Assembly (NCBI GenBank): GCA_016182485.1
Contig: JACPGH010000007.1
Location: 27,656-91,655, forward strand
Reading direction: 5' to 3'
DNA from: Candidatus Kaiserbacteria bacterium
Lineage (GTDB): Bacteria; Patescibacteriota; Minisyncoccia; Phycocordibacterales; Phycocordibacteraceae
DNA length: 64,000 bases
Positions 887-38,021 of this stretch are shown in pieces; the first letter of the stretch is position 1, and every line of letters begins with the position of its first letter. Made by a program: the position numbers and the translations under genes. The notes beneath the pieces are model-generated. The model was not told the origin of the DNA. It saw only the letters and a program-made list of their open reading frames with translations, and did not search any database.

Positions 887-905
887 CCCAAACCCCGCAG
901 CGCAC

Positions 906-975
906 ATTCTGTGAAGGTCTGACCTTCACAAGCTAAGCGTTCCCTAAATGTGAATGTGAAGGTCAGACCTTCACA
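906..975. repeat. Pair of REP-like 21-bp palindromes (TGTGAAGGTCTGACCTTCACA and its CAG-centred inverse), left flank of the REPtron
   Basis: Perfect inverted repeats tgaaggtc/gaccttca at 908-930 and 954-975. The same palindrome recurs at 1718-1742, 1763-1790 and 18548-18570. Confidence 0.8.
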
Positions 976-984
976 CTACCAGGA

Positions 985-1695: not shown

Positions 1696-1715
1696 GAAAT
1701 AAGAATACCTCGCGC

Positions 1716-1792
1716 CCCTGTGAAGGTCAGACCTTCACAGGATAGCTGTGGATTACGACAGCTTGTGAAGGTCTGACCTTCACAAGCTGTTC
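1716..1792. repeat. Pair of REP-like palindromes, right flank of the REPtron (extended 14-bp arms acagcttgtgaagg/ccttcacaagctgt)
   Basis: Copies at 1718-1742 (cag centre) and 1763-1790 (ctg centre). Mirror-symmetric to the left-flank pair. Confidence 0.8.
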
Positions 1793-1879
1793 TTCGATGG
1801 AGGGTGGCCAGATAAACAGGCATGGACTTTGCTATGTAAAGCGAACCGGCGCACGCGAAGCGTGCGCCGGATAACTGGC

Positions 1880-2494
1880 CTACCCTATTAGGGGTCGCAC
1901 CAGGAGGAATCGACAGGTCGGAAGCCACAGACATTCATCCTCTTCTCGCAGGCCGATTACCCGCTTCCCCGACAGCTCCTGATACAGGACTACCGGATTG
2001 GGACAGAAGGATGCGATCGAGAAGCGACGCTGCCGGCCTGGATAGAGCGCGGCATGCGCGAGCATGTGCTCGATTCCCGCGAACGACCACCAGGTTGGGA
2101 CCAGCTGTCTGATCTCCTCTCTCGCGCGTGCCGACGTGACCTCCCTATCGAACCGGACATATTGCGCCAAGAACCATTTGGTATTGACGGTGGCCGGCTT
2201 CTGGACGAGGGCGCGGAATCTCTCCCCGACCTGCTTCTCGACGTCGAAGTCACCGAGGGCTAGCATCTCCTCGATCGACAGCGAGTAATCCACGACGAGA
2301 CGGAAGAGGCTCGACTCCAGACCGAGTGCCTGTCGAAAGCTCTTGAGGTCGGGCAGTGTGCGTTTCCTAGCCGCCTGAGCAAGAGCTGCCAGATGGCCGC
2401 CGTGAATCGTGTCGATCTCCTCTTCCGTGAGCCCCTGCTGATCGAGAATGAGAAGCGTCTGCCTCGCCCTGCCGAAGATGCCATCGGTGCCCAT
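1880..2494 (-). CDS. Hypothetical protein (204 aa), no recognisable family
   Basis: Long ORF with coding-like composition between the REPtron and the RNR gene. No motif recognised. Confidence 0.4.
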   Translation of the reverse strand: MGTDGIFGRARQTLLILDQQGLTEEEIDTIHGGHLAALAQAARKRTLPDLKSFRQALGLESSLFRLVVDYSLSIEEMLALGDFDVEKQVGERFRALVQKPATVNTKWFLAQYVRFDREVTSARAREEIRQLVPTWWSFAGIEHMLAHAALYPGRQRRFSIASFCPNPVVLYQELSGKRVIGLREEDECLWLPTCRFLLVRPLIG

Positions 2495-2614
2495 AGGTTC
2501 CTCCTATGTGGCGCTACTCCTTGCGGGTAGCATATGTATTTCTAGAAACGGCACATGCGCCTCATGTGCAAGGTACTCCGTAGGCACTATGCCAGAAGTA
2601 AAAAATGGCGCAAC

Positions 2615-4996: not shown

Positions 4997-5081
4997 GGGT
5001 TGATAATCAGTGATTGGTAATGACTCCCTCGACTTAGGTTTAGTGTACTCCTCATGTGATTTCGATACCTGTGGATATTTT

Positions 5082-5540
5082 TTATTGCGAAACGTTCGGC
5101 AGATTTTTCAACGAGAACAACGTACCGGTGGCGACTCCGTACATTCGAGCAAAGCCCGCGGCTGTCTCAAGGACATAATGAGTTGGCAGAGCGGGGTAAA
5201 AGACATTCGGAAAGCTCGAGGCAGCCACATCGCTCGCGATAGATATGACTTGTCCTTTATCATCCAGCCAGAAAATATCTATCGGGACAAGCATATCCTT
5301 CATCCATATGCCGTAACGCTCGCTTTTCGGAAAAACTAAAAGCATCCCGGAATCTTCCGGGATGCTTTCTCGACCGCTAAGCCCCTTTTCCCGCGCGGCA
5401 GGAGTTGTAGCAAATTCGATCTTTAAGGACAGGTCGTCGAGCTTAACTACAGGCTCGTTCAGAGCGTATGTCCTATAGACAAGCAGGGCCCCCACGATAA
5501 TTACGCACCCTATCAACAGAGATGCTATCCATCTCGCCAT
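5082..5540 (-). CDS. DUF192 (COG1430) family protein with N-terminal signal/TM segment
   Basis: Motifs GLSGRESIPEDSGMLLVF and GIWMKDMLVPIDIFWLD are typical of DUF192. Confidence 0.6.
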   Translation of the reverse strand: MARWIASLLIGCVIIVGALLVYRTYALNEPVVKLDDLSLKIEFATTPAAREKGLSGRESIPEDSGMLLVFPKSERYGIWMKDMLVPIDIFWLDDKGQVISIASDVAASSFPNVFYPALPTHYVLETAAGFARMYGVATGTLFSLKNLPNVSQ

Positions 5541-5560
5541 TCGCTAATTATGCGCTACCT

Positions 5561-5749
5561 CTAGGAAGTCCTATGCCGCTGCCCACTTTCTTCCATTCGA
5601 GAATGCGTCTGTACGCCCCAGAGCGCGAATACGGCGACTAAGAGGCCGGTAACCACTAGCGTCCAAGATAGCGCCGAACCGGTCAGCCCCAAGAAAGGGA
5701 CGACTATCGTCCACAATCCGAGCACTGCGTTAACCCACTGTTGCCACAT
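5561..5749 (-). CDS. Small two-TM membrane protein (62 aa), possibly SPW-repeat-like
   Basis: Two hydrophobic helices with W/G-rich motifs. Family uncertain. Confidence 0.35.
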   Translation of the reverse strand: MWQQWVNAVLGLWTIVVPFLGLTGSALSWTLVVTGLLVAVFALWGVQTHSRMEESGQRHRTS

Positions 5750-5848
5750 GGTGTGAATAATTACCTAATAATAAGTTGCATGCTAGCCGAGCAGTGATGA
5801 AAATATCGTGAGCGAGATTTCTGTTTTTCTGCTATAACTCCCGTATAC

Positions 5849-5935
5849 GGAGGCGTCGCATAGTGGTCTAGTGCACCGCCTTGGAAAGGCGGCAGGCCGG
5901 AAACGGTCTCGAGAGTTCGAATCTCTCCGCCTCCG
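5849..5935 (+). tRNA. tRNA-Ser (anticodon GGA), class II with long variable arm; CCA not encoded
   Basis: Acceptor stem ggaggcg/cgcctcc, D-arm, anticodon stem ccgcc/ggcgg with loop uuGGAaa, long variable arm, T-arm gagag-ttcgaat-ctctc, discriminator G. Confidence 0.85.
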
Positions 5936-5936
5936 C

Positions 5937-6827
5937 TTATTTTGCAAGTAAAGCTCTGATGCGGTCCGCGACGGGCGGGTGCGTGGAGAAGAGACGCTCG
6001 AGCCAGCTGACCGTCTTGCCTTCCGGACGGCCATAGGGCTCGTCAATAAAGAGATGCGCCGTGGCATGGCTCTTGTGCCGCATAGGCCGGTTATGCGCGC
6101 TGATCTTCTCTAGTGCGGAAGCCAGTCCTTCCGGAAAGCGAGTCAAGAGCGCGCCGGAAGCGTCGGCCAGATATTCCCGCCGGCGGGAAATAGCGAGCTG
6201 AATGAGCTGAGCGGCGATCGGCGCGAGAATAATCCCGACGAGGCCGAGGACAAGGATGATCGGACTGCCGCGATTCTCCCGGTTATTGCCGCCGTAGAAC
6301 GACATGCGCAGAAAGAAGTCCGCCGCGATAGCGACGAAGCCGGCGAGCACCACGGCAATAGTCATCACGAGGATATCCCGATTCTTGATGTGCGAAAGCT
6401 CGTGCGCAATGACTCCTTCGAGTTCGGTCCGCGAAAGCATTGAGAGAAGTCCGGTCGTCGCCGCGACTACCGCGTGCTTCTCGTCGCGGCCGGTCGCGAA
6501 TGCGTTCGGCGCCGGATCGTTTATGACGTACAACTTCGGCATCGGCAATCCCGCCGTGATCGCGAGGTTTTCCGTGACGGTATAGAAATCGAAAAACTCC
6601 TTGCGAGATACCGGGCGCGCCTTCGTGAGCGAGAGCACGAGCTTGTCCGAGGCCCAGTACGCGTAAAAATTCGTCGCTATCGCGATGATGACCGCGAGCC
6701 AGAGGATCGCCGGCTCGTTGTAGTACCATGCGATCGCATAACCGACTGCTATAACGACGACCAGGAAGCCCGCGATCAAGGCCCATGTCCGGCGGATGTT
6801 GCTCGAGCGCTGTTCGTAGAGGTTCAT
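5937..6827 (-). CDS. htpX: Zinc metalloprotease HtpX (M48 family)
   Basis: HELSH zinc motif, four TM segments, and the conserved C-terminal layout of HtpX. Confidence 0.85.
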   Translation of the reverse strand: MNLYEQRSSNIRRTWALIAGFLVVVIAVGYAIAWYYNEPAILWLAVIIAIATNFYAYWASDKLVLSLTKARPVSRKEFFDFYTVTENLAITAGLPMPKLYVINDPAPNAFATGRDEKHAVVAATTGLLSMLSRTELEGVIAHELSHIKNRDILVMTIAVVLAGFVAIAADFFLRMSFYGGNNRENRGSPIILVLGLVGIILAPIAAQLIQLAISRRREYLADASGALLTRFPEGLASALEKISAHNRPMRHKSHATAHLFIDEPYGRPEGKTVSWLERLFSTHPPVADRIRALLAK

Positions 6828-17933: not shown

Positions 17934-18293
17934 TCAAACGGATCGCGCCGAGGCAGCAATTTTTTGGAAAATTAATGTTAATTCTTGGCTCTCTTTCTGT
18001 AATCTCCCTAAAGCATCGTCTTCTATCGTCCCACAGGACACCAGCATCCTAAGCCAGTGCTTCGTTTCTTGTATCTCTTTTTTGCATATGTAAATCTTGT
18101 TGACGAAATCTCTTTTTGAGCTGGCGCCGTTCGCTTCCATATAATTGGCTCCTACGCTCGTACCAGAGCGTAAAAGTTGGTTAACAATTGGATCTGTTAT
18201 ATGACTACGATGGATTTTCTTACAAAGCGATATAATTTCTTCACCAAACCGAGCCGTTCTTTCTTCTAGATCGTATTTCTTCGTTTGATCCAT
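17934..18293 (-). CDS. Four-helix-bundle protein (PF05635/TIGR02436, '23S rRNA intervening-sequence protein' family)
   Basis: 119 aa. Motifs LRSGTSVGANYMEA and RDFVNKIYICKKEIQETKHWL match the 4HB family. Sits exactly between a left arm and a right arm of a family-1 element. Confidence 0.75.
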   Translation of the reverse strand: MDQTKKYDLEERTARFGEEIISLCKKIHRSHITDPIVNQLLRSGTSVGANYMEANGASSKRDFVNKIYICKKEIQETKHWLRMLVSCGTIEDDALGRLQKESQELTLIFQKIAASARSV

Positions 18294-18339
18294 TGAAAAT
18301 TGGTCCTTATTTGAAAATTGGAAATTGTAAATTGAAAAA
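18294..18339. repeat. Family-1 element, right-arm type (ttgaaaattg repeats), upstream of the 4HB gene
   Basis: ccattgaaaattggtccttatttgaaaattggaaattgtaaattgaaaaatt. Confidence 0.7.
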
Positions 18340-21300
18340 TTATTGTGGCGTTGTCGAAGTTTCGGTAGCCGCGGAGAGGGGCTCGATTACTGTCACTAGC
18401 CTCGAAACCGAACCCGTGTTCCCCGCCGCGTCCGTCGCGCTGTAGGTGAGCGTGTATGAGCCGGCTGTTGCGGTATCTGCGGAACCCGAGGTCGCGATTT
18501 TTGCCGTTAGGTCTCCGTCCGTTTCATCTGTAGCGGTCGCCCCCGGGTCTGTGAAGGTCTGACCTTCACTGATCTGCATCGCCGCCTCTCCGTTCAAGGT
18601 CACGATCGGAGGTTGAGAGTCTGAATCCGGACTTATGACTTCCGACTCTGGAGTAGCGCTCGACTCTTGACTCGTGACTTGTGACTCTTGACTTGTTGTA
18701 CCGGCTACTACGCTCCCGTTGCCTACGATCACCGACCGCGTCGCCATGATGCTCCCATTCGGCCCGAGTACGCGATAGGTGATTATGTAGGTCGTCTCGC
18801 TTGAGGTATCAATAGTCCCCGGGCCGACTTCCGACTCCACGCCGTTGATATAAGTCGTTACGGGCGCACCCCCTGCATCGATTCCCGGATCAACGAAGTT
18901 CCCCCCGACCTCGATCAGATAAGGATTATCCCCGAGCACCGTAATCCATTGGGTGCTCGTGTTTGAATTGGAAATTGAAAATTGAGAATTGGAAATTTGT
19001 GACTCTGGCGTGCTTGTCGCCATCTGCCCTTCCGTCTGGATCAAGAAGTAATCGAAGGAGGTGTCTCCCGCCTGCGGGCTCTCGAGCACGAGGCGGAAGG
19101 AGCCGTCCTTCTTCTCCGCGATATACCAGGAGCCGGTCGTCGAGGCGGTGAAGGTGACGAATATCTTGGTCGAGGGCTTCACGTAGGCGTTCTGCACCTC
19201 CGCGACCGTGTTGCCGGCGATTATTTTCACCGTCCCGGCCGAGCTCGTACCGGCGGAATTCGTCGCCGCGACGAACTGGTCGGCCACGAGCGTGCCGAAC
19301 TGCGCGATGCCCTTCGCGATATAGGCGCCAAAGGCGTTAAAGGCGCTCGCGAGCGAGGTCGTCGAGAAGGAGACCGGCGAGCCGGAGGCAGAGGAGACCG
19401 CGCCGCTCTCGAGCGCCGCGAGGCGCGCCTCGAGCGAGGTGAGCCGCACCTCGGCGCGATCGACCTTCTCGGCGAGCGTCTGCACGCCCGCGAGGGTCAG
19501 GGTCGCGAGCTTGTAGAGATCCACGCCGTTGCCGTCTATCGAGAGGATCTCGGGCGCCGTCTCCCGCGCATCCTCGGCAATGAGGCCGAGCCGGAGCGGG
19601 TTGCTCCCGGCCTCTGCCGCGTAGCGATACGTCGCGACCTTGAGCCCGCGAACCTTGCCCAGCACGGCCTCGGTCGAGCTCGCGCTCATATAATTGATGT
19701 CGGTCTTGAGCGCGCGCGTCGAAGTGTTCACGAAGCTCGTCGCGCTCACTTCCTGCGCCGTGAGGCGATTGATGTAGCCCTCGTTCGTCACCGCGAGATT
19801 CGATGTCCACACGGAGGTCGAGGCGACAAAAGAATCCGCCGCTACGTTGCCATATACTGTGAACAAGCCGGCAGCTTGGTGCGGAAACGATCCTGTCACT
19901 TCGATTTCTGAGGGTTCGATTCCCTCTGCCGGCTTTTGCAGGTTTTCCACAATGCTTGCCGGGGTGCTTGACGCGTAAACCCAGTTTGCTATAATAGGTG
20001 CGGTGACAGGCTCGTTTCTCGCAGAAATCGAACCCTCGTAAGAGAACCCGAAGTAGCCGCCCGTAAGGGCGGTTATTTCGTTTTCCAGCGTCCCTACCCT
20101 CCCCGCGAGCCGCGTCGAAGTGGTGCTCAGCTCCTGTATCGCCAGTATCATCGGCGCGGCGAGGCCGTCGTAATTGATGGAGAGCGTGCCGTCGGGCGTG
20201 AGCGAGGTGGGGGCGGAAGTCTGTACGAGATCCGGGAACACCTCTCGCACCTGCTGGGCGATGAGGCCGAATTGCTTCTGGCTCGAGCGCTCCGCCGCCG
20301 GATCCCAGTAGAAAGAAACGGGCCGGAGCGCGTCGATCGCAGACAGCCCGCTCGCTGTCGCGAGCGGGCTTATATCCTGCTTCAGCCGCTCGTCAGACGC
20401 GGAGCAGGCGAGGAGGCCGTTGCCGTTAGACGTGAAGCCGGTGCAGTTCTTGTAGCCGTCGAAGGTGACGTTCGCCGTCTCCCCGCCGACTTCAAGCAGG
20501 GTCGCGGGCGTCGTAGTCCCGAGGCCTATCGCGCTCGCGCTCATGTAGATCGGCTGGACGCCGCTCCCCACGAGGCGCGAGGTGATGATGAGATTGCCGG
20601 TTGAGGCGTCGATGCCGAATTCGCCGATGTAGTTGGGGTCGGAGCCGTTGTAGATGGTCATGGCGGAAGCGCTCCCCGCGGTCGTCACGATCGAGAAGCG
20701 CTCGCTTTGTCCGCCGGGGCTTGCCGTCCCAATCCCGACATCACCGGAGTCGTCGATCACGAACGGCGTCGGGTCGCCTGCCTGGTCGTTCACGGCGAAG
20801 GAGAGCGCGGCGCTCGTATTCTCGACCGCGAACTTCGCGAACGGCGTGCTCGAGGCGATGCCGACCCGCTCGTTCGTGGCGACATAGAGCGAGGAAGTGG
20901 CGGTGAGGGTCGTACCGGTCCCCGCATAGTATGGGAACTGCCCGGCCGTGCCGGAACCGACCGTCCCTGTCCCGCTCCCGCCTCCCACGCAGACTCCGTT
21001 AATCGCAAAACATCCTGTTCGTATATCAATGCCGGAGCCGAACGTGGACGTGGCGGTCGCCGAAATGTTAATCGTATTGGCTCCCGTATCTCCAAGCGAG
21101 AGCAGCGTCCCCGGACTCGTCGTCCCGATGCCGACGTTGCCTTCTATTATCATCCCGTTAGTGGGAGCCGCCGCACCGTAATTTGTTCCCACGGAAACCC
21201 CTCCAGCAATACTCAATTTACTTCCCGGAGTAGTGGTGCCAATACCAACCCTCTGGTTGTACCCTCCAGAGACACCGCCAATAAAGAACGGCGTGTAGCT

Positions 21301-24300
21301 CGTGGAGAAATCTCTGACAGCAGCCGTGTTTTGCTCAATAGAAAAGAAATCAGTCGTATTTCCTACATGGAGCCGCCAGATACCTTCAGAAGTTGCATAA
21401 TTCTTGTTGTCCATTACGAAGTAATTGTCTCCGCCGGTTGTGGTTTGAAGAATGCTTAATGGCGTTGTCGTCCCTATGCCGACGTTGCCAGTGCTGTTTA
21501 TCACCATTTGTGTAGCATTGCCGCCTGTTCGGAAAGACATGCCTCTCGATAGCCCGTTGGGACTGTAGAAAACCCCCCCATCAGCTACGTTATTCGGGCT
21601 TCCAAACAACAAAGCTTGCTCATTAGCATTTGGAGCAAGAAGAGATAGGTAATTTGAGCCACTGTTTTCAACCGTCAGGACTGTCCCCGCAAGAGGGGTA
21701 ATCCCCGAAAATCCTCCTGTTACATGCAATTTACTCTGCGGACTCGTCGTCCCGATCCCGACGTTGCCATTCTTTATAATAGTCATGTAGTTCGAGATGG
21801 TAGAACCATCCCAGACGCCAAAGTCGAGTGCCATATTGCTGCCGCCGGGCGCCCGAGTTTGGATACGAGCGAAGTCATACCCTCCGGTGGCCGTATCGCT
21901 AAAGAGGAGCCCGATAGCATCACCGGTTTGTCCTCCAAAACCGCTCGTACCAATTTTGGCTACGCTTGTCAGGCTTCCTGCGACTCGTGTACCGGAAACA
22001 GTTAATGTATTTGTAGGCGTCGTCGTCCCGATGCCGACATTTCCGGTGCTTGCTTGAACGGTTAACTTAGGATTGCCACTGATAGACAATTGCACATCTC
22101 TGTTTGAACTTAACATCGCATATGTAGAATTGTCCGTGGAGAGATAATGGCTTTCATCACCAAAGAAAATATTCCCGGCTACTGAAAGTTTTCCTCCAGG
22201 TGCCGCCGCCCCAATCCCCACATTCCCATTCGCCAGCACGGTCATGAGGGTGGAAGTCGACGTGCCAGCAGTCGTAGAGGCGATAGTGAACAGCGGCGTG
22301 TTTACAGCGGTTCCCGCAGCGTTCGAAATCGAGAGGATTGAATACGGCGAGGTCGTCCCGATGCCCACGTTGCCGCCGCTTGTGATGCGCATTTTTTCAG
22401 AGGCATTGGTAGTAAACCCAAGATAGCTACTTCCAAAAATGCCGTAGCCAGTGAGGTTTGAAATATTTACGGCTGGAGTCTCTGCGGTACTTTGAGCTTG
22501 TTCATCAAACGAAGCCCGGCCGAAGGCGTCAATCTTAAACCATTCCTGGGCAGTCGTCAGGTCGGTACCATTTATCAAAACCGCGCCATTACCGGTAGTG
22601 CCGCGTAAAATTAGGCGAGTGTTGTTGGTCGTGGTGTTCGCTATTTCCAAATGACCGACCGGACTCGTCGTCCCGATGCCGACGTTGCCGGCAGTCGTGA
22701 TTGTTAATTTTGCGCCATCAGAAGGAACGGCGTTATTTGTCGTTATGTAGAATTTATTTTCAGAATCATCCCCGAGTCCCATTGCCCAATTCGTCGTTCC
22801 ATTTGTCTGGAATTCTAGCTCATTGTTATTGGTTACAGCTCCACGATTCAATCTCAAATAATTGTGGCTGCCGGAATCAAACCTTGAAACAAGATTCGAG
22901 CTTTTATAGACATCCAATAATACACCCGGCGTCGTTGTCCCAATCCCGACGTTGCCAGTCTGCACTATCAAAGCTGCGTGACTTGCATCAGCCATGTTTA
23001 TGTGAAGACCTCGCTGTATGCCTGCGTTTGATTGCGACCCTCCGGTTATTCTTAGACCGGTATTTATTCCGTTTGTCCCTGAGCCTGTCGTAGCGCCGGT
23101 CGTAATATCTATGCCGTAAGATTCCTGCGCATTGCCGCCGCTGTGATCTTTTCTCATGGTTGGGGTGGTAATTTGTACGCCCCTCCATGTAAAGCCGCCC
23201 GTATTCCCTAACCAATTCCCGGAGGTAATCTCGATTCCCCGAACTGTCGCGACATCGCCGCCTTGATCAAATTGGCCGGGGCTGCCTGTCTCGATCCTAG
23301 CTCCCGTGAGGGTAGCTGGCGCATTATTCATGGTGAAGGTTGGCATCTTGAGAACCAACCCTCTCTGCGTAACTCCCGAGGCATTGGTTACATTGGTATT
23401 CGCATCGAGAGTCGCAAGGTCAAAAGTAGAGCTTATAGCCGAAGGCTGTGCAACCGCCAATCTGCTTTCGGGACTCGTCGTCCCAATCCCAACATTCCCA
23501 TTCCCGTCGATCACGAAGCGGTCGTCGGTGCCTAAGGCGGATGACGACGCGATTTTGAATTTGCCTCCGTCGGAGTAATCCATGCCCATTGTCCACTTGT
23601 ACGTCGGCCCCGCGAGCGCTGATAATTCGATTGCGACGTCGTTCGCCGGCTGATAAAGAGTCAGGACTTGATTAGCGCTCGTCGTCGCAATGCTCAATTT
23701 TCCGTCACCGCTGCCAGTACCCTGCGCGGTTATGAATGGAATCGTTGCACCCACATATAGTTTAAAAACATCATTCCCTCCGCTAAGAGCCGTGTTATCC
23801 CAATCGTCGGAATTGCCTAAGTAGACAACTCCGTTCCCTCCGGTGCTTTTTGAAGAGCCTACTATGGCAATCCCAGCTGCTGAAGAGCTGCCCCACGCCC
23901 TTTCGAACAGCGCATTAAGCCAGCTGTCTGGGGTATCGGTAATACCCGCGCTTTGGGCTGTGTCGCGGACATGCAAATCCGCCCAAGGACTCGTCGTCCC
24001 GATGCCGACGTTGCCGCCGTTTGGATTTATCAACGCGCTGCGGTTATTAGCGGAATGAGCTTGCAGAGTCAAATTCCCGGTAGAGGTGTTATACAATTCG
24101 AGGTATCCATAGATAGAAGTGTTATCAAGACCTGAGCGAATTTGCTGAGAGTACGGCTGGAATATATCTCCGGCTACATGCAAGGTTGCGAGAGGACTTA
24201 CTGTTCCAATCCCAACATTGGAAGTTGTTGCCGATACAGTAAGGACATTTGTGCCAACTTGTAATGTAGCTCCGGGATTGGTAGTCCCGATGCCGACGTT

Positions 24301-27300
24301 GCCGCCGTTTGTCTGAAGAGAGAGCGGGTAGTTGACCGACTGGTCTGTGCTGTCATGTACTTGAATCCATGCAGACCACGGAGAAGTATTCAACGCACCA
24401 AAATCCATCGCAATATTATCTGTGCCGCTGAAACGTACCCGTCCGGTAGCAGTCGTCCCCGAATTAGCCGGGACACCCGCGGCTCCATTCACCTGGAGCG
24501 AAAGGGCGGGATTTGAAACGCCAATACCAACGCTTCCCCCCGCATCTATGGTAAAGGGCGTGGCGTCCGGCGACTCTGTGTCCTCCACAACGAATGAGGG
24601 ACCACTCCCTGCATTCGTTACCGAAAGCACTCCCCACGGACTCGTCGTCCCGATGCCGACGTTGCCGGAAGTGTCTATCGTCAAAGATTCTACACCGTTG
24701 GAATAGAGCGAAAGTTTTTGAGCCTTGCCATTGACATCCCCCATCTGCAAAGTGCTGCCCGATTGTGAGGCAATAATTATATTGCCCGGAGCCACCGAGA
24801 GAACATAATTGGAGGTCGCGTAGAATCCAGGAGCCGTAAGGTATCCGTTATAATCCCATCTGGCTAATTCTGATTGTGCGCTATTTTCGATTCTTATGAT
24901 TGGTCGGTTTGCTGCGTCATCTATAGTTCTAAAAACCGCGACATAGTCATTTGGAGACGCGCTCGTCGAACCGGCCACGACCAATTTCGACGTTGGATTC
25001 GTTACACCAATCCCCACGTTCCCTCCGAGGAACACCGCCGCCGGGCCAGTCGATTTCTGCTCGATAGCGAGCGTCGGATACGCCGAGGTGCTTGAGGCAG
25101 AGAGCTGGCCCCAAGGGGTGGTGGAACCGATCCCGAATTTCCCATTCGAAAGGTCAAGGGTCATTCGGGTTGTGGGCGTAAAAGCAGAATTCATCGTTAA
25201 GCCCGTATCCCCCGTAAACAAAAGTTCTCCGTTTAGCTCTCGGAGCATAGAAGCCGCCGTTCCGCGGGCAACCATAGCGGCTGCGACCTCGTCTACGTCG
25301 AAACCTAGGAATACATTTCCAGAATTGACGACGGACATTGAAATAGACCCGGGACCTGCGGCATAACCAGAATTCACAATAAATTGCGAATTAAGCCCTT
25401 GGCCCCCTCCATAATTCTGGATATTTAACAAAGCATCTGGACTCGTCGTCCCGATCCCGACGTTGCCGCCTTCCTGAATGTACATCCGCGCAGACAATGT
25501 TGCTGCACTCCCAACCGCCCCGCTTGGCGCGGTGTAAAATCCAATATCTCCAGCTCTGTTGTTATCATTAATCCCGATTGCTGCGCCACCGGCGGCTTCT
25601 ATATATTTCCAACCACTCGAATAGTAAAGGTTGCCCGCTACATTGGCTCCGGCGTTCCCACCAAAGGTCATGTCATCCCCTGATGTGGCAATATGAAGAA
25701 GATTTAGCGGACTCGTCGTCCCGATGCCGACGTTGCCAGTGCTATCAGCAATGAACATTGAATCATCTGGAGCGTTGTAGCCGATCGAAAACTTCCTTCC
25801 ACTCGTTCCTGCATCTGTCCCAAGAATTATTCTTCCAGCGTTATTACCAAAGTAAACTATCTTACCAGCTGGAGAAGATGCTGAGTCATCCAAGCGTATA
25901 TATGGAGTCGAACCAACTGCATGAATAATCTGTACAGGATTGGCGACTCCTATACCGAGTTTCCCATTAGTCCCCCCTGCAGTTGATGCTCCGACGAAAA
26001 GATCGCCTCCAATAGAGGTGAGTGCAGCCGGACTCGTCGTCCCAATGCCGACGTTGCCTGAGCCGTTTGCGTAGAGGGTGCTGGCGATCGCGACTTGAGT
26101 AGCCGAAACACTAATGGCATTATCGAGACCTGCTGCAGCAAATGCCAGAAGAGTTTTATCGTCTTTACCATCACGTATGTAGAAATTGTTACTGGTCAAG
26201 CCTCCAATGAAGCCAACCTTCCACAAAGCAGCTCCGTTCGAGTCTAATGTAAGCCCTCCATCATGGCTATTATTTGGTCTATTAAAAAGAATAGAAGCAG
26301 GGCCACCGCTAATGGAGAGTAACGCTCCCGGACTCGTCGTCCCGATGCCGACGTTGCCGTTCGCTTGCAATGTCATCACTGTAACATCCCCTGTTTTATC
26401 AAAACTGCCGCTGCTTTTGAGATTAATATCGAGGCGTGAATACGGATTGGTATCACCCACTTGGTATCGTCCGAGCGCAAATTCCGCAATATTGGGATAT
26501 GAGACACCGTCATTTACACCTCTATAGAGCTGCAGGATTCCTGCTGCTCCCACTGAAGAAGGAGCAACAGAGCCCACCACCTCAAGAGGCACCGCTGGAT
26601 TTATCGTTGGAGTTCCGATACTCACTTCGGTACCGCTTATAATCATCGCATCCGAAAATACATTTGCCCCCGTTGTGGTCTGAAACACTAACAAGGAGCA
26701 ATCATTTCCATAACAGTTACCCCCGAAAGTACCTAAAATTCTTCCAACCGACGGTGTTGGAGTCACACCTCCCGTAGGCGCAAGAAACCTGATACCCGCA
26801 CCCGGCCCATAATTTGTACCCGGTAAATCGTTCACCACCGCTATCTCGGCGCTTATATTTCCACTCCGTGTAGAAGTAGTATCGGACCGAGAAAATTCCG
26901 CAAGAAAATTCGGTATAGCTTTCCCAATCCCCACATTCCCCGCGTTCGTAATAGTAAGCGCCGCGGGGGTTGATGTCCCATACGCATCCGTCGATGTCCC
27001 GACGTACAGGTTCCCGCCCATTGAGGAAAAGAGCCAGTGTTTCAAGTTGGCACCCGCCGAAGAATCAGAGAGCGCAAAAGATGGTCGAGTGCCCGCGGCT
27101 TGCAGGAGCCAGTTCGGCGTCGTAGTCCCGATGCCGACGTTGCCGGAGTCATTGACGACCATCAGGACATTATTCGTTGCGTCTCCATCTGTTTGATGAT
27201 GGCCGATGACGAAGGCCTGGCCAGTGTTGTCATTATCAGCGTCAAGGTTGACCCGGAAACTGCCTGTGCTTGAAATCATTCCCCAACCATCAGGTCCGGT

Positions 27301-30300
27301 TGCAGGAACATATCCATCCTGTGTCGTGCCGCCGTAGCCAAAACGGAAGCTCGAAGATACTATCATCTGCGATCCAGTAAGAGATAGTCCCGATGCTCCT
27401 AACCCGAAAAATTCTACGGTGCTGTTTGGTTGAAACCGCATTCGTTCCGCAAGCGAACTGGTATTGGTATCCACCCCATAAAATACCAAAGACGTACCCA
27501 ATCCTCCCGGACTCCATGAGCCGTTTCCAGCTGCTTCCGCGATAATTCGCGCCCCGGTTTGATACGCCGAGCCGTCATATCCCATGAAATCTATCTGGCC
27601 CAATGTATCACTTGAACAATCCACTCCGCATGTTGCAGAGGGAGCACTTGCCGTCCCGCGGGCATGGATTAGTTGAAGCGCCGGACCTGCATCACTAGTA
27701 AGAAATTGACGAATCGTCGAGGTAGCACTCGAGTTACTGACAATGTCAAAGAGTGTACTTGGCCCCGCCGTCCCAATTCCTACCCTGCCATTCGCGAGCA
27801 CGGTCATCAAAGTCGAGGTCGAGGTGCCACCCGTCGTCGAGGCGATGGTGAAGAGCGGAGTATTCGCCGTCGTACCGGCTGAATTTGAAATCGAGAGGAG
27901 TGAATACGGAGAAGTAGTACCGATGCCTACTTTTCCGAGATCATTGATAGTCATCCTCTGAACAAGCGTATTGGTGGAATCTGCTCCGGTATTTACATAA
28001 AACTGCAATTCGGGGGAATTGTGCGACTCACCGCTTGATCCCACTATTTTAGCTTGGTTGGCAACGCCATTTCGCATATTGAACTGAAGTTCAGGAGCGC
28101 CCTGATTACTGTCGCCAGTAATGCGAATGGCTGTGACCCCTGAAGAGCTGTAAACTTCAAGTTCTTCTGCAGGAACTGTAGCAGTATTTAACCCACCTCC
28201 TACCCCCAATAAGCCGCCCGTGGTCAGAACCATCTTGCCGTTTGTACTTACTGCAGTCGAATCTTTGAAGAACCCGAGATGTCCGCTGTCTCCTGCGGAT
28301 ATATACCAGTCATCCCCCCCAACAGCCGCATTTGATGTTGAAAGATAGCCAGTTGTCGATATATTAGCTGCCGTAAGTGTTCCAGTAGCAGTGATATTGG
28401 CAGCTGTTATGTTTCCGGAGAAAAGGCCATTTCCGTGTACCGAGAATAGGCTTGCCGGACTCGTCGTCCCTATGCCGACGTTCCCGCCCAAGAACACCGC
28501 TGCAGGACCGGTCGACTTCTGCTCGATGGCGAGGGTTGGATATGCGGAGGTCGAGGAGGCAGAGAGCTGGCCCCAAGGGGTGGTGGAACCGATCCCGACA
28601 AGACCAGCGGCTGTGATGCGCATAAGCTCATATGCTCCTACAAAAGTGATAGGATCGGCGTTCGACAAAAGCCTATAGGCACTTCCTGTCCAGTTGAGAT
28701 TGTGATTTACATCATAGCCAATGTAGCCGCTTGTGGTAGTGAAATTCCCTCCAGAAACGACACCCGTTGAATTCACGGTCAATCTTGGGGTCCCTTCGGT
28801 AGCTACAACGAGAGCATTAGTGTTTGATCCTTGAGCTACATTGACATACATCCCGTGCGAGCCATTCGTAGTATTGGAGTTATAGAAGTTGGCTACATAA
28901 TTGCCTGGCTCACTTTTTGTAACATCGAGTGTGTAACCCGGCGCAGCCGTCCCGATTCCCACATTCCCATTCGCGAGAACGGTCATGAGGGTCGAAGTCG
29001 AGTTCCCTGCCGTAGTCGAAGCGATCGTGAACAGCGGTGTGTTCACCGTGGTGCCTGCCGAATTTGAAATCGAGAGGAGTGAATACGGAGAAGTAGTACC
29101 GATGCCGACGTTGCCTTCCACTATTAATCCATTTGTCGGCGCTACTGTCGTGTCATACGAAGCGCCGATTGTTGCTCCACCCGACACGCTCAGCTTAGAC
29201 CCTGGCGCCGTTTCCCCGATACCAAGGTTTCCGCCTGCAGTAAGTCTCATTTTTTCAGAATCATTGGTTACAAAAGCGAAGGGATGATTAGTGTATGTTC
29301 CTATGAAGGCGCCTGGGGTTCCAAGCTTGCCGGTGCCCACGCCTTCTCCCTGCCAGTAAGAGGTTACACCGCCCCCCGCAACGTCAACTTGAAATTGAGC
29401 ATACGATTTATCTGAGGTAGACAGGTTCCTAACTCTAACTGTCGGAAAAATCGTGCCATTGTCGCTTGTTGAATTTTTTACGACATCAAGCAATACACCC
29501 GGCGTCGTCGTCCCGATGCCGACGTTTCCAGTGCTTGAAATCCTGACCCGTTCTGCTACTGAAAGATTAGCCGGAGTTGTCCAAAACGATAAACCCGTAT
29601 CACCTTGTTCTGCTTGAAAATTGTCATGAACTGCAACAATTCTAGCGGCGTCATTTGTTACAACATTATTACCAACATCAACTTGGCGGAATCCAATATA
29701 TCCTCCCTGTTCGCTATATCCATTGGCCAGACGAGACTCAAGAATCATTATAGGCGCGTATGTCTGGGACGGAACCGTGGTCGGAACAATATCGAGTCGA
29801 GCTGACGGCGTCGTCGTCCCGATACCGATGTTGCCGGTGTTAAATATTGCGGCAGGATTTGTGCCATCGCCTACAACGTAAAGACGCGCGGGAATAGTGC
29901 TTGCAGTAGGCGTGTCCGATCCGATGATTTGAACATTTCCTCTACCAAGATTTAAACTACTTGCGTCGATGCCAGCATTGACAACAGCACTTACTGCTGC
30001 ATTGGTAAACTGCCAATAAGGAAGAGCGCCGCTTGAGGTAACGCGGACAGTATAATTATCTGACGTATTCGTGATAGCAAGTGGGGCAGAACCTGCTGCA
30101 CCGCTGACCACTTGAAGATTATTATTCGGACTCGTCGTCCCGATGCCGACGTTGTTGTTAGAAGAAAGGATCGTAAAGACGGCCGAGGAATCCTCTGCAG
30201 GTGCGTTTCCTTTGCTGATTACGAAGTTATCCGAAGCGCTGTACGGCAAGCCCAATCCCCACTTGACGGCTGAACTCCGCGAAAAATTCACAAAGGCACT

Positions 30301-33300
30301 CTGGCTGTCTCCCGTATTGAGGTTGATTCCTATGCTATTAGAATTCGGATTATTAATGGTGAAAATCGAAGTCGGCCCGGGTGTAAAATCAAATCGATCG
30401 CTGCCGCCGATTTGGACAGCCCCGTTTTGCATCACTAAGAGTCCCGCATTGCCGGCCGACAGTCCCCCCGCGAACGTCGAAGTCGCCGTCGTCGAGGTCG
30501 CGGTGAAATACTGTGAGACGGTTTCCCCAACCACCGAAAGTTTGGCATAGGGACTCGTCGTCCCGATACCGACGTTGCCAGAATTTGTAATACGCATTTG
30601 CTCCGTAGCAGAAGCTCCAGTTTCGAAAAGAATATTCCCGTAGGTAGCGCTGGCGCTCGTGTTGGTAATGTGTATGTTGCCGGTACTCGGATTATAAAGA
30701 TCAATGTACGCAATGTTATCAACTCCGAGAATCTTGCTTGTACTCAGCCCTAAATTGCCGGCGAGCGTATTGGAGGAACCGTTAAGCGCCATAACGTTTG
30801 TTGCGCCAACTCTCAGATTTAACACACTGTACCCGGCAGTTTTAAGGTATGATCCACTGTTTTCCGCGCTTATTTCCGTATACCACGTGGGGTCACTTGG
30901 TAAACTTGCTCTGACGTTCGTGCCCGCCACCAATCCACCAGTGAGCGTGGAAGTGCTTGTATTCGTAACGATAAGGTTCGTCAATGTCGACGTTCCCACT
31001 GCGAGCGTGCTTGTCCCCGTTATCGCACCACCAAAAAATCCTGTGCCACTAACATAACTATTGCCATGTACGCTTAACAGAGCCGCAGGACTCGTCGTCC
31101 CGATGCCGACGTTGCCCGTGTCGCTCTTGATGGCGATGTCTGTCCTCTGGATGCTGCCATCATCCGCCGAAATCCAGAAAGCATCGTCAATGATTCGGAG
31201 AATATGTTTCTTGCTGTTCGAGTTGTCTTGGAGGACGATACCCGGATTTGTGCCGCTGCCCGGGCCTATGTGCAGAGAGGTGGTGAGTGCCGTTGCAATG
31301 CCGCTTCCTGGGCTCGCCGTCCCGATGCCGACGTTGCCGGAAGTATCAATTCTCATTCTCTCTGTAGGTGTAAAACTATTGCCAGCTGTTAGCCCGCTGT
31401 TTGTGAAGAACCGAATATTCCCCAAATAATTTTCCACTTGCGAAGCCATCGTACTCCGGGCGACATAACTACTGCCATTCCACGACATTCCTCCGGCAAT
31501 ATTGCCTTGGCTGTCCGCAGTTGAAATGAGAAAGCCGCCACTGTTAGTCCCGTCGGAACCAAACCTTATTTGAGTATTTGAGCTTGCTGTGGCTATGTCC
31601 AGCTTATAGTTTGGCCCCGCCGTCCCGATGCCGACGTTGCCGGTGCTTGTTATTCGCATCCGCTCTGCAATCGTGGAATCGGTCTGCGTTGTCGAAAATT
31701 GCAGATACCCGGCGTTAGGGTTCGATTCCATTCTTCCTGCAATTGTGGCAAAGGCTAATGCACCTGTTGCTCCGCCACCAAAACCGGAGAATCGAAGTTG
31801 AGGACCTTTATCAATTGCTGCAGCATCGCTTGAACGTAAGACTAGGGTGCCAGCAGATTCGGCTGAATTAACCACTCCACTCGCTGCCTCAACCGTTAAT
31901 TTCCCACTTGGACTCGTCGTCCCGATGCCGACGTTGCCGCTCGACAAAGTAGTGCCAGTACCATCGATCCCCGTACCATAAATGAGATTGCCAATATTAA
32001 GAATATTTGATGAGGTGACCGCCGGAGCATCAATGTCGTAGCCTAGGATGATATTCCGCGAACCAGTCGTAAGCGCATCTCCTGCCTGATAGCCCAGGAG
32101 AATATTCCCCCCGCCGTAGGTGATGGCATTCCCCGCATTGTAACCAAGCGCTACGTTCCCTTCGGTATCATTGGAGGGGCCGGTAATCATATTAAGCAGA
32201 GCCTGATAGCCGATGGCGACTTGATTTGAAGAGCTCGTCGCTGTTTGAAGCGCACTCTGTCCCATTGCGATGTTGTAGCTACCCGTCGTATTGCTCAAGA
32301 GGACATTTACACCGATGCCGATGTTTGACGCTCCACTCGTATTCGCTGACATAGCACTTCTGCCGACAGCCGTATTGAAATCGCCCGTCACGATCGCGCC
32401 GCCAATCGCGTTACTACCGACAGCTGTATTATATGCGCCTGTGGAAATATGGTAGCCTGCTTGAAGTCCCAGACCAGTATTTTCGACACCCGTGGTATCG
32501 GCTAAGGCGTATGCTCCCAAAGCGGTAAGGCCATCTGTCGTGACATTGCTATTTAACGCTGATGTGCCTATAGCTACGTTATTGCTTGCAGTAGTAAGGG
32601 AGGCACCCGCCAAATAGCCCAAGACTGAATTATTGTTTCCTGTGGTCAAACTCTTCAAACCATAGCGTCCGATCGCGATATTAGAAGTTCCAGTGGTAAT
32701 ACTAGAAAGAACCAAGTCGCCGCCAATGCCAATATTGTAAGTTCCGGTCAAGGTCGTGTTTCCAGCCGGCGCACCGTTCGTGCCAATCATGAGATTGCCG
32801 GTACCGTAAGAGTCAATCCACCTGTTGTCTCCCATCTTTATTTGACCAACTGCTGTAGTTGTAACCGGAAGACGGAAGTTCCCAGTAATTTCTAATTGCT
32901 CCGCCGGCGTCGTCGTCCCGATGCCGACGTTGCCCGCGCTCGTTACTGTGAGATACGGCGTGACCGTATCACTCGAGGAGGCGATGCGGAAGAGGTCCGA
33001 GGTCTGGCCGCTCCAGCCCTGGACGAAGAGCGTCGAGGTGGCGGAGGTGAGCGAGGCGTCTTGTATATAGAGCGGCTGATTGAATTCAAAGCGCTTGCTC
33101 GACGTGGCGGCGTTCCAGGCCAGCTGAGCGTTCGGCGAACTGCTGCCGCGCGCGAACACTAGGTAGGCGCTCTCTTGATCTGCGGATGTGTTATCAGAAT
33201 TGACAGTGAGCGTCTCTGCCTGCACATTGCCGCCGACTATAGTGCCCACCACGGTGACCGCGCTCACTTCGTTGGCGTAGATTTTATCGAAGCGCACAGA

Positions 33301-36300
33301 CGGCGTGCCGATGTCCTGTGTGCCGTCAAGCGCTTCGATGTTGCCCGTGATGATGTTGGAGCCGATGCGGAGCGTCCCGCCAGCGGCGACGATGTCGTGA
33401 TTGCCCGTACCGGTGAAGGTGAGGCCCGATCCGGCGCCGTCTATCGTCACGCCGCCGTTCAAGAGCGACGCGCCGTTGACCGAGAACTTTGACGATGGGG
33501 TTGAAGTCCCTATGCCGACGTTGCCATCCGAGTCGATGATGAAAGGAGTGGAATCGGGAGAAGCAGTATCCTCTACGACAAAGGAAGGGAAACTATTATC
33601 GCCATTGGTCACGCTCAACTTCCCCCATGGAGTCGTTGTGCCAACACCGGCCGCCGATTTGCTTCGAGTGAGTGATAGAACCGTATTAACAACACCTCCC
33701 AGGGCCCGCTCGATATGCAGGTCTCCGCCGTTTGTATCCACTGCGGTCGTCGAGACGCGGAATCCCCAGGTCTGACGACCGCCGGTGAGCGAATCGCCCA
33801 AAGTAAGCACTTGATTAGAGCCAGCCGTGTCACCTCCCGAGGTAAGGATATTCAGCGCGCCAAGTGGAGCCTGTGTCCCTATTCCCACCCTCCCATTCGC
33901 GAGTACGGTCACGAGCGTGCTCGTCGAAGTGCCGGCAGTCGTAGACGCGATAGTGAAGAGCGGCGTGTCTACAGCCGTCGACGCAGAATTTGAGATCGAC
34001 AGGAGGGAGTAGGGAGAAGTCGTCCCGATGCCGACATTTCCTGCCGTATCGATGCGCATGCGCTCGAGATTGTTCGTGCCGAAGACGACAGGGTTATTCG
34101 AGGTAGCGCCGAAAGCGACTATGCCGCCCGCATCGGCCATATTTCCCTTGAACAATACGGAGTTGTTAAGTTGTAGCGCACCGAATAGATTCCCCGTCTG
34201 CGTCGTGCCATACACATCGACCGCGCCATAGGAGTTCCCGTCGTTTTGAATAGAGACTTGGGTCCTGCTATTGGGATCCGCCCCGGTTATCGCCACCTGC
34301 GTCTGCCCACTACCCGAACCGAGGATATCCAGCAATCTTGTGGGTACAGCTTTGCCGATACCGATCTTGCCGTTCGCGAGCACGGTCATGAGGGTCGAAG
34401 TCGAGGTGCCGCCGGTGGTCGAGGCGATGGTGAACAAGGGCGTGTTGACCGTTGTTTGTTGGCTGTTTGAAATTGAGAGAAGCGAATATGGAGAAGTGGT
34501 CCCGATACCGACGTTTACGGCGTTCGCGCCCGTGCCTCCCAGCACGAGAGAGTTGCTCGCGCCGACGATTGCGTTCGCGCCGATAGCCGTAGCGTTTGTC
34601 AAAGTACTCGAAGCCGCATCGGCCAAGTGGCCCAAGAACGTATTGTAGGTTCCTGTTGTGTTAGTCCAGCCTGCATAAGTCCCGAAGGCTGCGTTATTAC
34701 TACCAGTGGTGTTGTAGCGTAAAGAACGATATCCATAACCAGCGTTGAAGTTACCGGTCGTATTTACCGAGGCGGCTTGATAGCCCGCTACGGTGTTGTA
34801 ATCGCCAGTCGTGTTTGCATCTAACACAAGACTGCCAAGGGCCGTGTTGTAGCTGCCGGTCGTATTGGCGGTGAGAACCTGCAAACCGAGCGCCGTATTG
34901 TGCCTGCCCGTCGTATTTACTGGCAGAGTGTATCCGCCTATTGCCGTGTTGTAATCGCCCGTCGTGTTCGCATTGAGCGCGAGATTGCCGATCGCGGTGT
35001 TATATAGCCCGGTAGTGTTAGCGGTCAGCGTGTTCGCGCCGATGCCCGTGTTCTGCGTCCCGGTCATCGTGAAGTTGCCCGCGTCGAGGCCGAGGAATGT
35101 GTTGTCCGTGCCGTAATTGTGGAGGAAGCGCATCGAGTTGACGTATACGCCGCCGGCCGTCGCGGTCGAAGAGGCGAGGACGAGATTGCCGCTAAACGTA
35201 GTCCCGCCTGTGATAGTGAGCCGGCCGAAGGTGGCCTCCGCCGCCGCGACCGAGATGCCGTTCGTGAGCGTGCTCCTGTCGAAAGTCCCGCCGCCGAAGG
35301 TGCCGTTATTGATGGTCAGATTATCGAGCTTTTCGATTCTCGCCACTTGCTGAATGGTCGTGATATTGGTCGCGGTCTGTCGCGAGATTGGCGAGAGCAT
35401 GCCGCCGACGGTGGAGAGAATGTCGTTTTTGAGCGCATTGAGCGAGAGCGTAACGTAGTCCTGTGTGACGCCCTCGACGACGGTGGTGTAGAAGTTGGAG
35501 GCTGGTTGCTGGAGGCTGGTTACTGGAATGATGTAGGCGCTAGCCGGAGCGGAGGCGACAACCGGGGTGGAGCTTGCCGTGCCCTTCGTAGCCTTTGTCG
35601 CAGGCTTAGGCGAAGTAGGGGAGCTTGCCGTGCCCTTCGTAGCCTTTGTCGCAGGCTTAGGCGAAGTAGGGCTATATACGATGACGGGCGCTGGTGCGGG
35701 GTTCAAAAGATACGCGAGGCCGCTCGCCCCGTTAGAAATCAGATTTCTAACGGGGCTGGTCGCAGAGTCCCAAAAATTGTTGATCGCTCGGTAGGTCGTA
35801 AGCGCGACTTTTTCTCCGGCCGAGAGCTGGGAGATGACGGCGGCGACGGGAGTGCCTTCGCGGTTCATATTTTCAAGAAGAGCAGGACCCTTGCCGCGCG
35901 TCGCCTCGTACGCGCCGACGATGGTTCTGCCGACCGCGCTGAATATCTGCGGGTCATTCACCATCTCGCTGAACCTTCGAGGAGCGAGTGTGAGCGGCTG
36001 GGCGGCTGCGACACCCGCATACGCGAGGTCCCCGGTCCCGGTAACGAGGGCGAGATATCGGTCGGAAGCGAAGGCGGTCGCGCCGACGAAGCGGTGCGCG
36101 AGCGCGTACTCGGCGTCGAATACCGCCTGAGCGATTCTCGGCCCTGCTTCGCTCACGCTACGCAGGGCGAGCCCGGCTTTTTCTGGCGTTTTGATAGTAG
36201 CGGCGACAGTCGCCCGCGCGAGCAGATCGCCTGTATTCCCGACGAGCGCCACGGTGGCGCGCCCTGCTTCGTTAAAACTACGCAGGGCAAGAGCGCTTAC

Positions 36301-37398: not shown

Positions 37399-37839
37399 GT
37401 CGGATAACCGAATTAACTAAATAATAGCTCGTCATTTCGGCAAAAAAATACCTACAAAAAAATTGTGTGGATAATGCGCTGACCTGCGCTTCAGATGAAC
37501 CGCTGAGACGGGGCCATTTTCGATCGAAACGTACGCATTTCTCACCCATTTTTTCAAAATCGTCCCGCAAAACCAGAAATCGGACGCTCCAAAGCGGAAT
37601 AGGCCACGCAAAGCCGGCCCAAGCGCATGTCAAAGCTCACGGAAACCTGTGTAAATTAGCTTTGAGAGCGGCATATTCGCGGTCCAGAGACGTCCATAAT
37701 TGATATTCTGAAATCACCCCAGACTTATGCGCGACATATACCGCTTATTTTTTAGATATTTCGGGCAAGCGACCTGGCTCACAACCGAATAGCAGTGATC
37801 GATGAATGGCGCTATTTACGCATTGTAAAAATAAATTCA

Positions 37840-37960
37840 GCCACTGCGCACAATATGAGATTGCATATATTGTGCGCACACATGCTTATCTCATAGAATA
37901 GATCTCCCTCAAGGAGATGAAATGCACAATATATATAGTATGTGACCTATACTTTCCCTT
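37840..37960. promoter_or_regulatory. AT-rich upstream region of the giant gene with operator-like inverted repeats (GCGCACAATAT / ATATTGTGCGC half-sites x3; hairpin atctccctcaaggagat)
   Basis: gcgcacaatatgagattgcatatattgtgcgc palindrome at 37845-37878, a further half-site gcacaatatatat at 37923-37935, and TATA-like hexamers. Confidence 0.4.
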
Positions 37961-38021
37961 TTTGGCACATTTTTCACTTTTATTTGTCAGGCAGTTTTAG
38001 ACGAGACAAGAAAGCATTGTA

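Follow-up and report, generated by a model that had tools for sequence, protein, structure and literature searches.

The window analysed here, a stretch of 64,000 nucleotides from a Candidatus Kaiserbacteria chromosome (contig JACPGH010000007.1, positions 27,656 to 91,655), contains an open reading frame (ORF) for a protein of 6,352 residues, whose last ~703 codons and stop occupy positions 18340-20450. This conserved chromosomal gene encodes a giant fibre made of phage tail-fibre parts, which ends in two tandem Peptidase_S74 (S74) intramolecular chaperone domains with intact Ser/Lys dyads and, behind them, in receptor-like domains. With moderate confidence, the product is interpreted as a membrane-anchored, homotrimeric surface fibre whose S74/coiled-coil end would fold the trimer and cut the chains just before S5668 and S5893.

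The bacteria of the candidate phyla radiation (CPR, or Patescibacteria) are ultrasmall and are believed to spend their lives fixed to other cells. The known uses of the S74/ICA module are the maturation of phage fibres and the release of the eukaryotic factor MYRF. If cleavage occurs in the protein described here, it would represent a third use of the module, and the two predicted cut sites would provide a handle on the folding and processing of 0.6-MDa chains outside a chaperone-poor cell. The gene in the window is one of many members, and its value lies in the well-defined, testable description of a family rather than in surprise.

Two S74 domains and the modules behind them

Pfam searches were run separately on each piece of the protein, with cut-offs of 22 bits for Peptidase_S74 and 27 bits for DUF5011. 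Copy 1 matched Peptidase_S74 with 60.2 bits (E 2.3e-16) and copy 2 with 35.9 bits (E 9e-9), the latter match starting at residue 5893. Both copies thus exceed the cut-off, in agreement with the first-pass annotation of this DNA, which had proposed two S74-type chaperone domains in tandem and had named the absence of a profile match or of a Ser/Lys dyad as grounds for refutation; both are present in both copies. The peptide motifs on which that proposal was built were all located at the positions given for them. Since the scores of the S74 and DUF5011 domains (Table 1) are far beyond chance, the domain observation is confirmed. A scan of the C-terminus against NCBIfam returned nothing useful.

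Conservation was counted on per-domain alignments, because in a global alignment of the full-length homologues intein columns were confused with S74 columns, which made it unusable. Every one of 23 copy-1 sequences, 27-58% identical to that of the window, keeps S5668 and K5673 (alignment positions Ser9 and Lys14). In 20 copy-2 sequences, S5893, K5898 and 23 other positions are invariant, Y5924 and Y5926 being among the invariant residues, and the mean column identity reaches 73%; the motif N-T-S-T-R-x-x-K-x-x-I was found in 37 of 118 homologues. The second copy had been described as degenerate. The presence of a second S74 domain holds, but the invariance of its dyad and of two aromatic residues within a tightly conserved subfamily indicates that it is divergent, not degenerate.

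Comparison of family profiles with the PDB placed both copies among characterised chaperones. The copy-1 profile matched 8jov (1e-13), 6f45 (2e-13) and the MyRF ICA domain 7dc3 (3.5e-10), as well as the T5-like L-shaped fibre 8hqz (1e-6) and GA-1 3gud (8e-6), while the copy-2 profile matched 8hqz (1.6e-7) and 7dc3 (0.014). When aligned with each other, the two family profiles gave an hhalign probability of 97.9%, with the Ser column on the Ser column and the Lys column on the Lys column. The dyad of copy 1 aligns with MyRF residue 587, an Ala in the crystallised mutant, and with K592; that of copy 2 was matched to the catalytic Ser/Lys pair both through 8hqz and through copy 1. In the profile alignments to MyRF, Y615 and Y617 correspond to F5696 and W5698 in copy 1 and to Y5924 and Y5926 in copy 2.

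An AlphaFold2 model was built for the monomer of residues 5640-6352 from 86 aligned sequences. Mean values of the predicted local distance difference test (pLDDT), taken over blocks of 10 residues, were ~67-94 for the first S74 domain and ~90 for the second with its long helix, and the same order of elements (a small alpha/beta core, then a long helix) was modelled in both copies. In a Foldseek search of the PDB with this C-terminal model, the MyRF ICA domain 7dc3 was matched with a TM-score of 0.64-0.68 and E ~5e-6, in an alignment that does not specify the copy.

The same Pfam family includes the phage chaperones of K1F endosialidase (3GW6), T5 pb1 and T5-like fibres (8HQZ), GA-1 gp12 (3GUD), 8JOV and 6F45, which resemble the domains of the window in the Ser-x4-Lys dyad, in the strand/helix core with a final long helix, and in the place right after a tail-fibre-type shaft. 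However, the phage chaperones are present in one copy, lie at the very C-terminus and are discarded after exposing the receptor-binding tip, whereas the protein studied here is cellular and membrane-anchored, and has two tandem copies with ~350 folded, receptor-like residues after the second.

Two elements absent from the first-pass annotation lie behind the second S74 domain, namely a putative trimeric coiled coil and a tailspike/lectin-like beta-sandwich. In the comparison of the copy-2 profile with the PDB, the helix assigned to the former matched designed trimeric coiled coils, though weakly; it is the counterpart of the helix responsible for MyRF trimerisation. For the model of the beta-sandwich, families of tailspikes and H-type lectins ranked first in Foldseek, but with E values of 0.012 or higher; a tailspike-tip or lectin-like fold is thus predicted with moderate confidence. 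Its likeness to the C-terminal sandwiches of tailspikes and depolymerases (9K4A, 7W1C, 7EEA, Sf6) and to H-type lectins is at the level of the fold only, with 9-19% identity. Two DUF5011 immunoglobulin (Ig)-like domains follow, as had been noted, although not directly after the chaperones, given that ~150 residues of coiled coil and beta-sandwich separate the second S74 domain from the first of them. By sequence, the second Ig-like domain matches 2kpn and the Ig-like domains of chitinase 60, and by fold (Foldseek) the matches were 4mb3, 5fq7 and 2kpn, chitinase 60 and BT2262 being among these proteins. Roughly 600 residues had been expected beyond the chaperone, which agrees with the counts of 627 residues behind the copy-1 Pfam match and 573 behind the full copy-1 domain; 355 residues remain after the domain of copy 2.

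Occurrence of the cassette and the split intein of its relatives

All the source-named homologues of the C-terminal 753 residues (n=118) belong to Patescibacteria (Kaiserbacteria, Paceibacteria, Parcubacteria and Minisyncoccia). The tandem of copy 1 and copy 2 is present in 15 of the 118 close homologues, and the order shaft, S74#1, S74#2, coiled coil, sandwich and Ig domains was found in at least 15 independent clusters at 90% identity; further representatives at 50% identity, which come from other samples and count giants of 2.7-5.7 thousand residues among them, have the same cassette order. Other homologues have a single S74 domain joined to the coiled-coil/sandwich/Ig tail, or copy 1 with only the distal half of copy 2. 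Among them, the type-C relatives (e.g. P0044) have a copy 2 without its Ser/Lys half and keep the tail. More distant relatives carry a signal peptide and an enzyme-like passenger ahead of an S74/Cys-loop/DUF5011 ending, the passenger being a GDSL lipase, LVIVD repeats or a pectate-lyase-like domain (the last one taken from a precomputed Pfam listing). In all these relatives, the shaft, or the enzyme passenger, is separated from the coiled-coil/sandwich/Ig tail by at least one S74 domain whose dyad is intact.

The closest comparison is with Patescibacteria proteins named "DUF5011 domain-containing" or "tail fiber domain-containing" (P0002, P0014, P0088, P0130, P0214), which are homologues with 50-70% identity that share the C-terminal cassette. 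Some are giants with a helix-turn-helix (HTH) N-terminus like that of the window protein, and this N-terminus and the cassette occur together in P0214 (5,704 residues) and in a further giant, P0129 (3,413 residues). Many of the Patescibacteria relatives have a split intein between the S74 copies, or contain 1, 1.5, 3 or 5 S74 domains, whereas the window protein has no intein and carries instead a unique linker of 105 residues.

When copy 1 was searched exhaustively through 1.84 billion representatives, 19,504 proteins were retrieved at E <= 0.001, of which 751 reached E <= 1e-10. Among the best 150 S74 representatives, at least two S74 domains were present in 21, and more than 200 residues separated the start of S74 from the C-terminus in 108. 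One of them, P0141 (5,473 residues), has five S74 domains with intact S-x4-K motifs, ~1,100 residues apart. P0141, P0173 and P0148, with 3-5 S74 domains, intact S-x4-K motifs and spacings of about 1,100-1,500 residues, look, from their sequences, like fibre polyproteins with several self-cutting joints.

In phages, as the first-pass annotation had stated, the chaperone is terminal: in all eight PHROG families matched, the S74 match ends at most 32 positions from the end of the profile. Neither copy of the window is a phage-type C-terminal chaperone in the strict sense (CIMCD), which lies at the extreme C-terminus and is the sole part removed. Eukaryotic MYRF, however, provides an established precedent: its S74/ICA domain is internal, and a long stretch lies between it and the C-terminus. 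The trailing residues, which had been considered unusual, are so in comparison with phages but neither in Patescibacteria nor with respect to MYRF. The layout is therefore unusual by the phage standard only; in Patescibacteria, S74 domains as a rule have further domains behind them, and tandem or multiple S74 domains are recurrent. The domain families are known and the cassette is widespread in databases, under generic names only; a literature search on S74 in Patescibacteria or in CPR giant proteins, within the library searched, found no paper describing the family.

The joint between the two S74 copies is occupied in many relatives by an intein. Forty-four of the 118 homologues open with the C-terminal segment of an intein, which ends in H-N before a Thr. 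In two contigs from relatives (L001 and L002), the upstream gene encodes S74#1 and then the N-terminal segment of the intein (C-V-V-G-D-T-K-L ... T-T-A-N-H-P-F-L), after which comes a stop. Pfam Intein_splicing positions 9-71 are covered by the N gene and positions 115-155 by the C gene. The 2.4-3 kb between the intein halves hold three or four ORFs. One encodes a PemK toxin or a Bro-N protein; another, a protein of 432/450 residues with a Zn-ribbon and a PD-(D/E)XK nuclease-like domain, shares 83% identity between L001 and L002; a third, of 155/174 residues and without a Pfam match, shares 81%. The start of this last protein, "FRDLDIYQ", presumably resembles that of the 23S_rRNA_IVP product encoded in the window, although no Pfam match was obtained. 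The nuclease-like and the 155/174-residue proteins are far better conserved than the flanking fibre parts, which have ~56% identity to the window protein. The location of the intein halves on either side of the joint, together with the conservation of the cassette, indicates that the S74#1/S74#2 joint is the insertion point of a split intein with a mobile cassette.

In the window gene, this joint carries neither an intein nor a remnant of one. The linker found there has no counterpart among the relatives save in the identical P0001, and residues 5780-5890 gave no Pfam match. An origin of the linker as an intein remnant was considered and rejected: besides the missing Pfam match, a profile of the C-terminal intein parts of the 44 relatives scored ~0 bits on the window protein, and the weak BLAST similarities of the linker are accounted for by a duplicated "neck" strand and not by an intein.

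Predicted self-cleavage and competing readings

According to the favoured reading, the fibre would be held in the Kaiserbacteria membrane by its single N-terminal hydrophobic segment and would display a shaft of phage tail-fibre-type repeats. At the C-terminus, the coiled coil and the two S74 domains would set the register of the three chains, and the shaft would be templated in the C-to-N direction, as happens in phage fibres. After trimer formation, the Ser-Lys dyad of each S74 domain would cut just N-terminal to S5668 and to S5893, giving three products: the anchored shaft (residues 1-5667), a fragment of ~25 kDa (residues 5668-5892) and a module of ~46 kDa (residues 5893-6352). The latter would comprise S74#2, the coiled coil, the lectin-like beta-sandwich and the two Ig-like domains, and looks like a sugar- or surface-binding tip. 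We infer the cleavage, the trimeric state and the direction of folding, as well as the choice between release of the tip and its non-covalent retention.

The argument for cutting comes from MyRF. The mutations S587A and K592A abolish cleavage of this protein, and the double mutation Y615A/Y617A abolishes cleavage at the normal site (PMC8326128). These four critical positions are conserved in both copies of the window, among relatives that otherwise differ by 30-70%. MyRF trimerises through the helix that follows its ICA domain, cleavage depends on trimer formation, and the cut lies between P586 and S587 (PMC8326128); likewise, T5 pb1 is cut between T1263 and S1264 in a trimer-dependent manner (PMC4690869). 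As both proteins are cut N-terminal to the Ser, the cuts are expected before S5668 and S5893, and not after the conserved Ser as had been anticipated.

Several points weigh against this interpretation. Cleavage in every member of the family would be an extrapolation from sequence, and the trimer, with its presumed intertwined active site, is likewise an extrapolation, the models being monomers. The active site of phage S74 domains also uses residues of the neighbouring chain located upstream of the Ser. In phages, moreover, the receptor-binding part precedes the chaperone. In the window protein, the receptor-like domains come after the chaperones, so that full release would discard them; this is the main counter-argument, and it points to retention or non-covalent attachment of the tip. 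The type-C relatives such as P0044, without the Ser/Lys half of copy 2, indicate that cleavage at the second site is not universally required. Finally, only this genome has the linker found between the copies, which is predicted to be disordered.

In a different, less probable reading, the S74 domains would act as uncleaved trimerisation knots, and the coiled coil, the lectin-like sandwich and the Ig domains would form a permanent distal adhesive tip that binds a glycan of the host cell or of a matrix. The domains after S74#2 resemble distal domains of tailspikes and pyocin fibres, lectins and Ig-like adhesin modules, and an N-terminal anchor puts the C-terminus at the far tip, a sensible place for a binding module; the tail kept by the type-C relatives in the absence of the copy-2 dyad also fits. 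However, the strict invariance of Ser and Lys in both copies is hard to explain without catalysis, and the characterised S74/ICA domains with an intact dyad all self-cleave (PMC8326128, PMC4690869).

A bolder extension of the self-cleaving fibre, which we regard as speculative and rather unlikely, is that in these CPR giants S74 no longer serves as a folding aid to be thrown away but as a joint that is programmed to cut itself. One huge chain exported by the Sec pathway would assemble as a trimer and then be cut at each S74 domain into separate trimeric products, and a split intein docking at the joint would ligate separately encoded, exchangeable tips onto the shaft. In such a case, the window gene would yield an anchored shaft plus a lectin/Ig tip complex that is either free or loosely attached, and relatives such as P0141, with five joints, would be true fibre polyproteins.

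It is very improbable that the gene is a prophage or phage tail-fibre gene whose chaperone has the ordinary phage role, despite strong matches of the shaft and the S74 domains to tail-fibre PHROGs. The giant ORF is flanked by housekeeping genes, with a small HTH protein, GatB, Obg and SecA encoded upstream, and a 23S-IVS-type protein, GAPDH, RpiB, Rpe, a split transketolase, PfkB and RecG downstream; there are no other phage genes nearby. The gene order is repeated in the two contigs of relatives described above, where the fibre gene also adjoins GAPDH, RpiB, Rpe, transketolase and PfkB, and this synteny identifies the giant fibre gene as cellular and its locus as conserved and chromosomal. 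Furthermore, the N-terminal HTH and membrane segment are common to the giant relatives, and the S74 domain, terminal in the phage families, is not so here. The host DNA is a Candidatus Kaiserbacteria (CPR/Patescibacteria) chromosome, and a prophage origin was rejected.

An artefact of assembly or annotation, for instance a chimera of repeats, is an equally improbable source of the giant ORF or of its tandem-S74 end. The shaft is indeed highly repetitive at the DNA level and the public record covers only the last 519 residues; nevertheless, the frame stays open for 19 kb and the domain order recurs in the independent clusters and in the representatives from other samples.

The least probable of all the readings is a MYRF-like switch, in which trimer-dependent self-cleavage would free the N-terminal HTH from the membrane to act on DNA. 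An HTH-like segment, one membrane segment and S74/ICA domains are all present, and the MyRF ICA domain is among the best structural matches. The ICA domain of MYRF/MrfA (7DC3) is likewise internal, its self-cleavage is trimer-dependent and driven by the following coiled coil, and it shares the Ser, the Lys and two aromatic positions with the window copies, of which copy 2 retains Y-R-Y. However, the ICA domain of MYRF lies on the cytoplasmic side, between the domain that binds DNA and the membrane anchor, so that cleavage releases a transcription factor, whereas the window protein has an N-terminal anchor and two S74 domains that are extracellular. The HTH match is under the Pfam cut-off (20 vs. 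27 bits). As the membrane segment (residues 118-136) separates the HTH from the S74 domains, which are ~5,500 residues apart, a cut at S5668 or S5893 cannot free the HTH, and a tethered transcription factor of this type was rejected, the HTH (residues 9-58) and S74 being on opposite sides of the anchor.

Gene layout, shaft and neighbouring features

The features of the giant gene, of its neighbours and of the intein loci are collected in Table 1.

Table 1. Position of the features of the giant fibre gene, the adjacent genes and the split-intein loci of relatives (nucleotides are window positions unless a contig is named).
Feature	Residues	Nucleotides	Strand	Remarks
Gene directly upstream of the giant ORF		38022-38795	minus	257-residue product
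Giant ORF		18340..37398	minus	6,352 residues + stop; frame open for 19 kb
HTH_17-like segment, presumed cytoplasmic	9-58	37225..37374	minus	Pfam HTH_17, 20 bits, under the cut-off of 27
Putative membrane anchor	118-136	36991..37047	minus	sole strongly hydrophobic 19-residue stretch
Fibre shaft	~700-5651 (start approximate)	20446..35301	minus	38 G-N-V-G-I-G-T-type repeats
Cys5652...Cys5665 loop	5652-5665	20404..20445	minus	just ahead of the S74#1 cleavage motif
S74/intramolecular chaperone copy 1	5668-5779	20062..20397	minus	dyad S5668/K5673 at 20380-20397; F5696/W5698
Linker between S74 copies, 105 residues	5780-5884	19747..20061	minus	predicted disordered; pLDDT <50
S74 copy 2	5885-5997	19408..19746	minus	dyad S5893/K5898 at 19705-19722; Y5924/Y5926
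Long helix/putative trimeric coiled coil after S74#2	5961-5997	19408-19518	minus	
Beta-sandwich domain, tailspike C-terminal/H-type-lectin-like	6014-6124	19027..19359	minus	without Pfam family; pLDDT >90
Ig-like DUF5011 domain 1	6152-6225	18724..18945	minus	PF16403 Bact_surface_Ig-like, 32.1 bits; pLDDT ~90
Ig-like DUF5011 domain 2	6267-6337	18388..18600	minus	PF16403, 89.9 bits; pLDDT >90
Short S/T-rich tail after Ig domain 2		to 18343	minus	
23S_rRNA_IVP gene (four-helix-bundle)		17934-18293	minus	46 bp downstream of the giant ORF stop
Split-intein loci in relatives		L002:3563-8868; L001:1139-6682		

The deposited protein MBI2410207.1 (Candidatus Kaiserbacteria) is 100% identical to the final 519 residues of the giant ORF and starts at a GTG codon, V5834, read as M. 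As the annotation is restricted to this part, copy 1 of S74 and the entire shaft are invisible in it. The full product of 6,352 residues was not found in a collection of 15 billion proteins.

A Kyte-Doolittle scan of the entire protein found a single window above 1.7, that of the putative anchor. The N-terminal segment, which recurs in the giant relatives P0214 and P0129, matches the excisionase family phrog_1840 (E 1.7e-4). A unit of 18 residues rich in Pro, Lys and Thr, SPTSPKPATKATKGTASS, occurs as two perfect tandem copies (35560-35670, residues ~577-613) after the membrane segment and ahead of the shaft, and may form a flexible stalk.

The shaft matches PHROG families of tail fibres and tailspikes (phrog_9942, 5e-51; phrog_18345, 7e-39; phrog_4636, 4e-22). 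No further S74 domain was found in it by Pfam, by a six-frame motif scan or by family hidden Markov models at maximum sensitivity. Its G-N-V-G-I-G-T-T-S-P repeat is kept at the nucleotide level between 21095 and 32949, where a core of ~29 nt, GGACTCGTCGTCCCGATGCCGACGTTGCC on the plus strand, occurs in at least 20 irregularly spaced copies. A longer unit of 194 nt occurs five times, with 69-77% identity to the reference copy. Such DNA repeats could drive recombination and length variation, and could also complicate assembly. At the distal end of the shaft, C5665 is found in most of the 23 aligned copy-1 relatives, and the Cys-to-Cys loop motif N-C-T-G-F-T-S-N-x-N-G-L-L-A-C is present in several homologues.

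The composition of the gene is uneven: within 18001-38000, the fraction of G+C is 0.50-0.51 in the middle of the gene (22-32 kb) and 0.55-0.58 at its two ends, to which the S74/Ig cassette belongs, so that the parts could have different histories. The product of the gene directly upstream combines an HTH_17-like N-terminus (26 bits) with a C-terminal hydrophobic segment, and has in common with the first 180 residues of the giant protein, where it is repeated, the motif NQRISAD. This upstream protein may be a paralogous, membrane-tethered HTH partner of the giant fibre.

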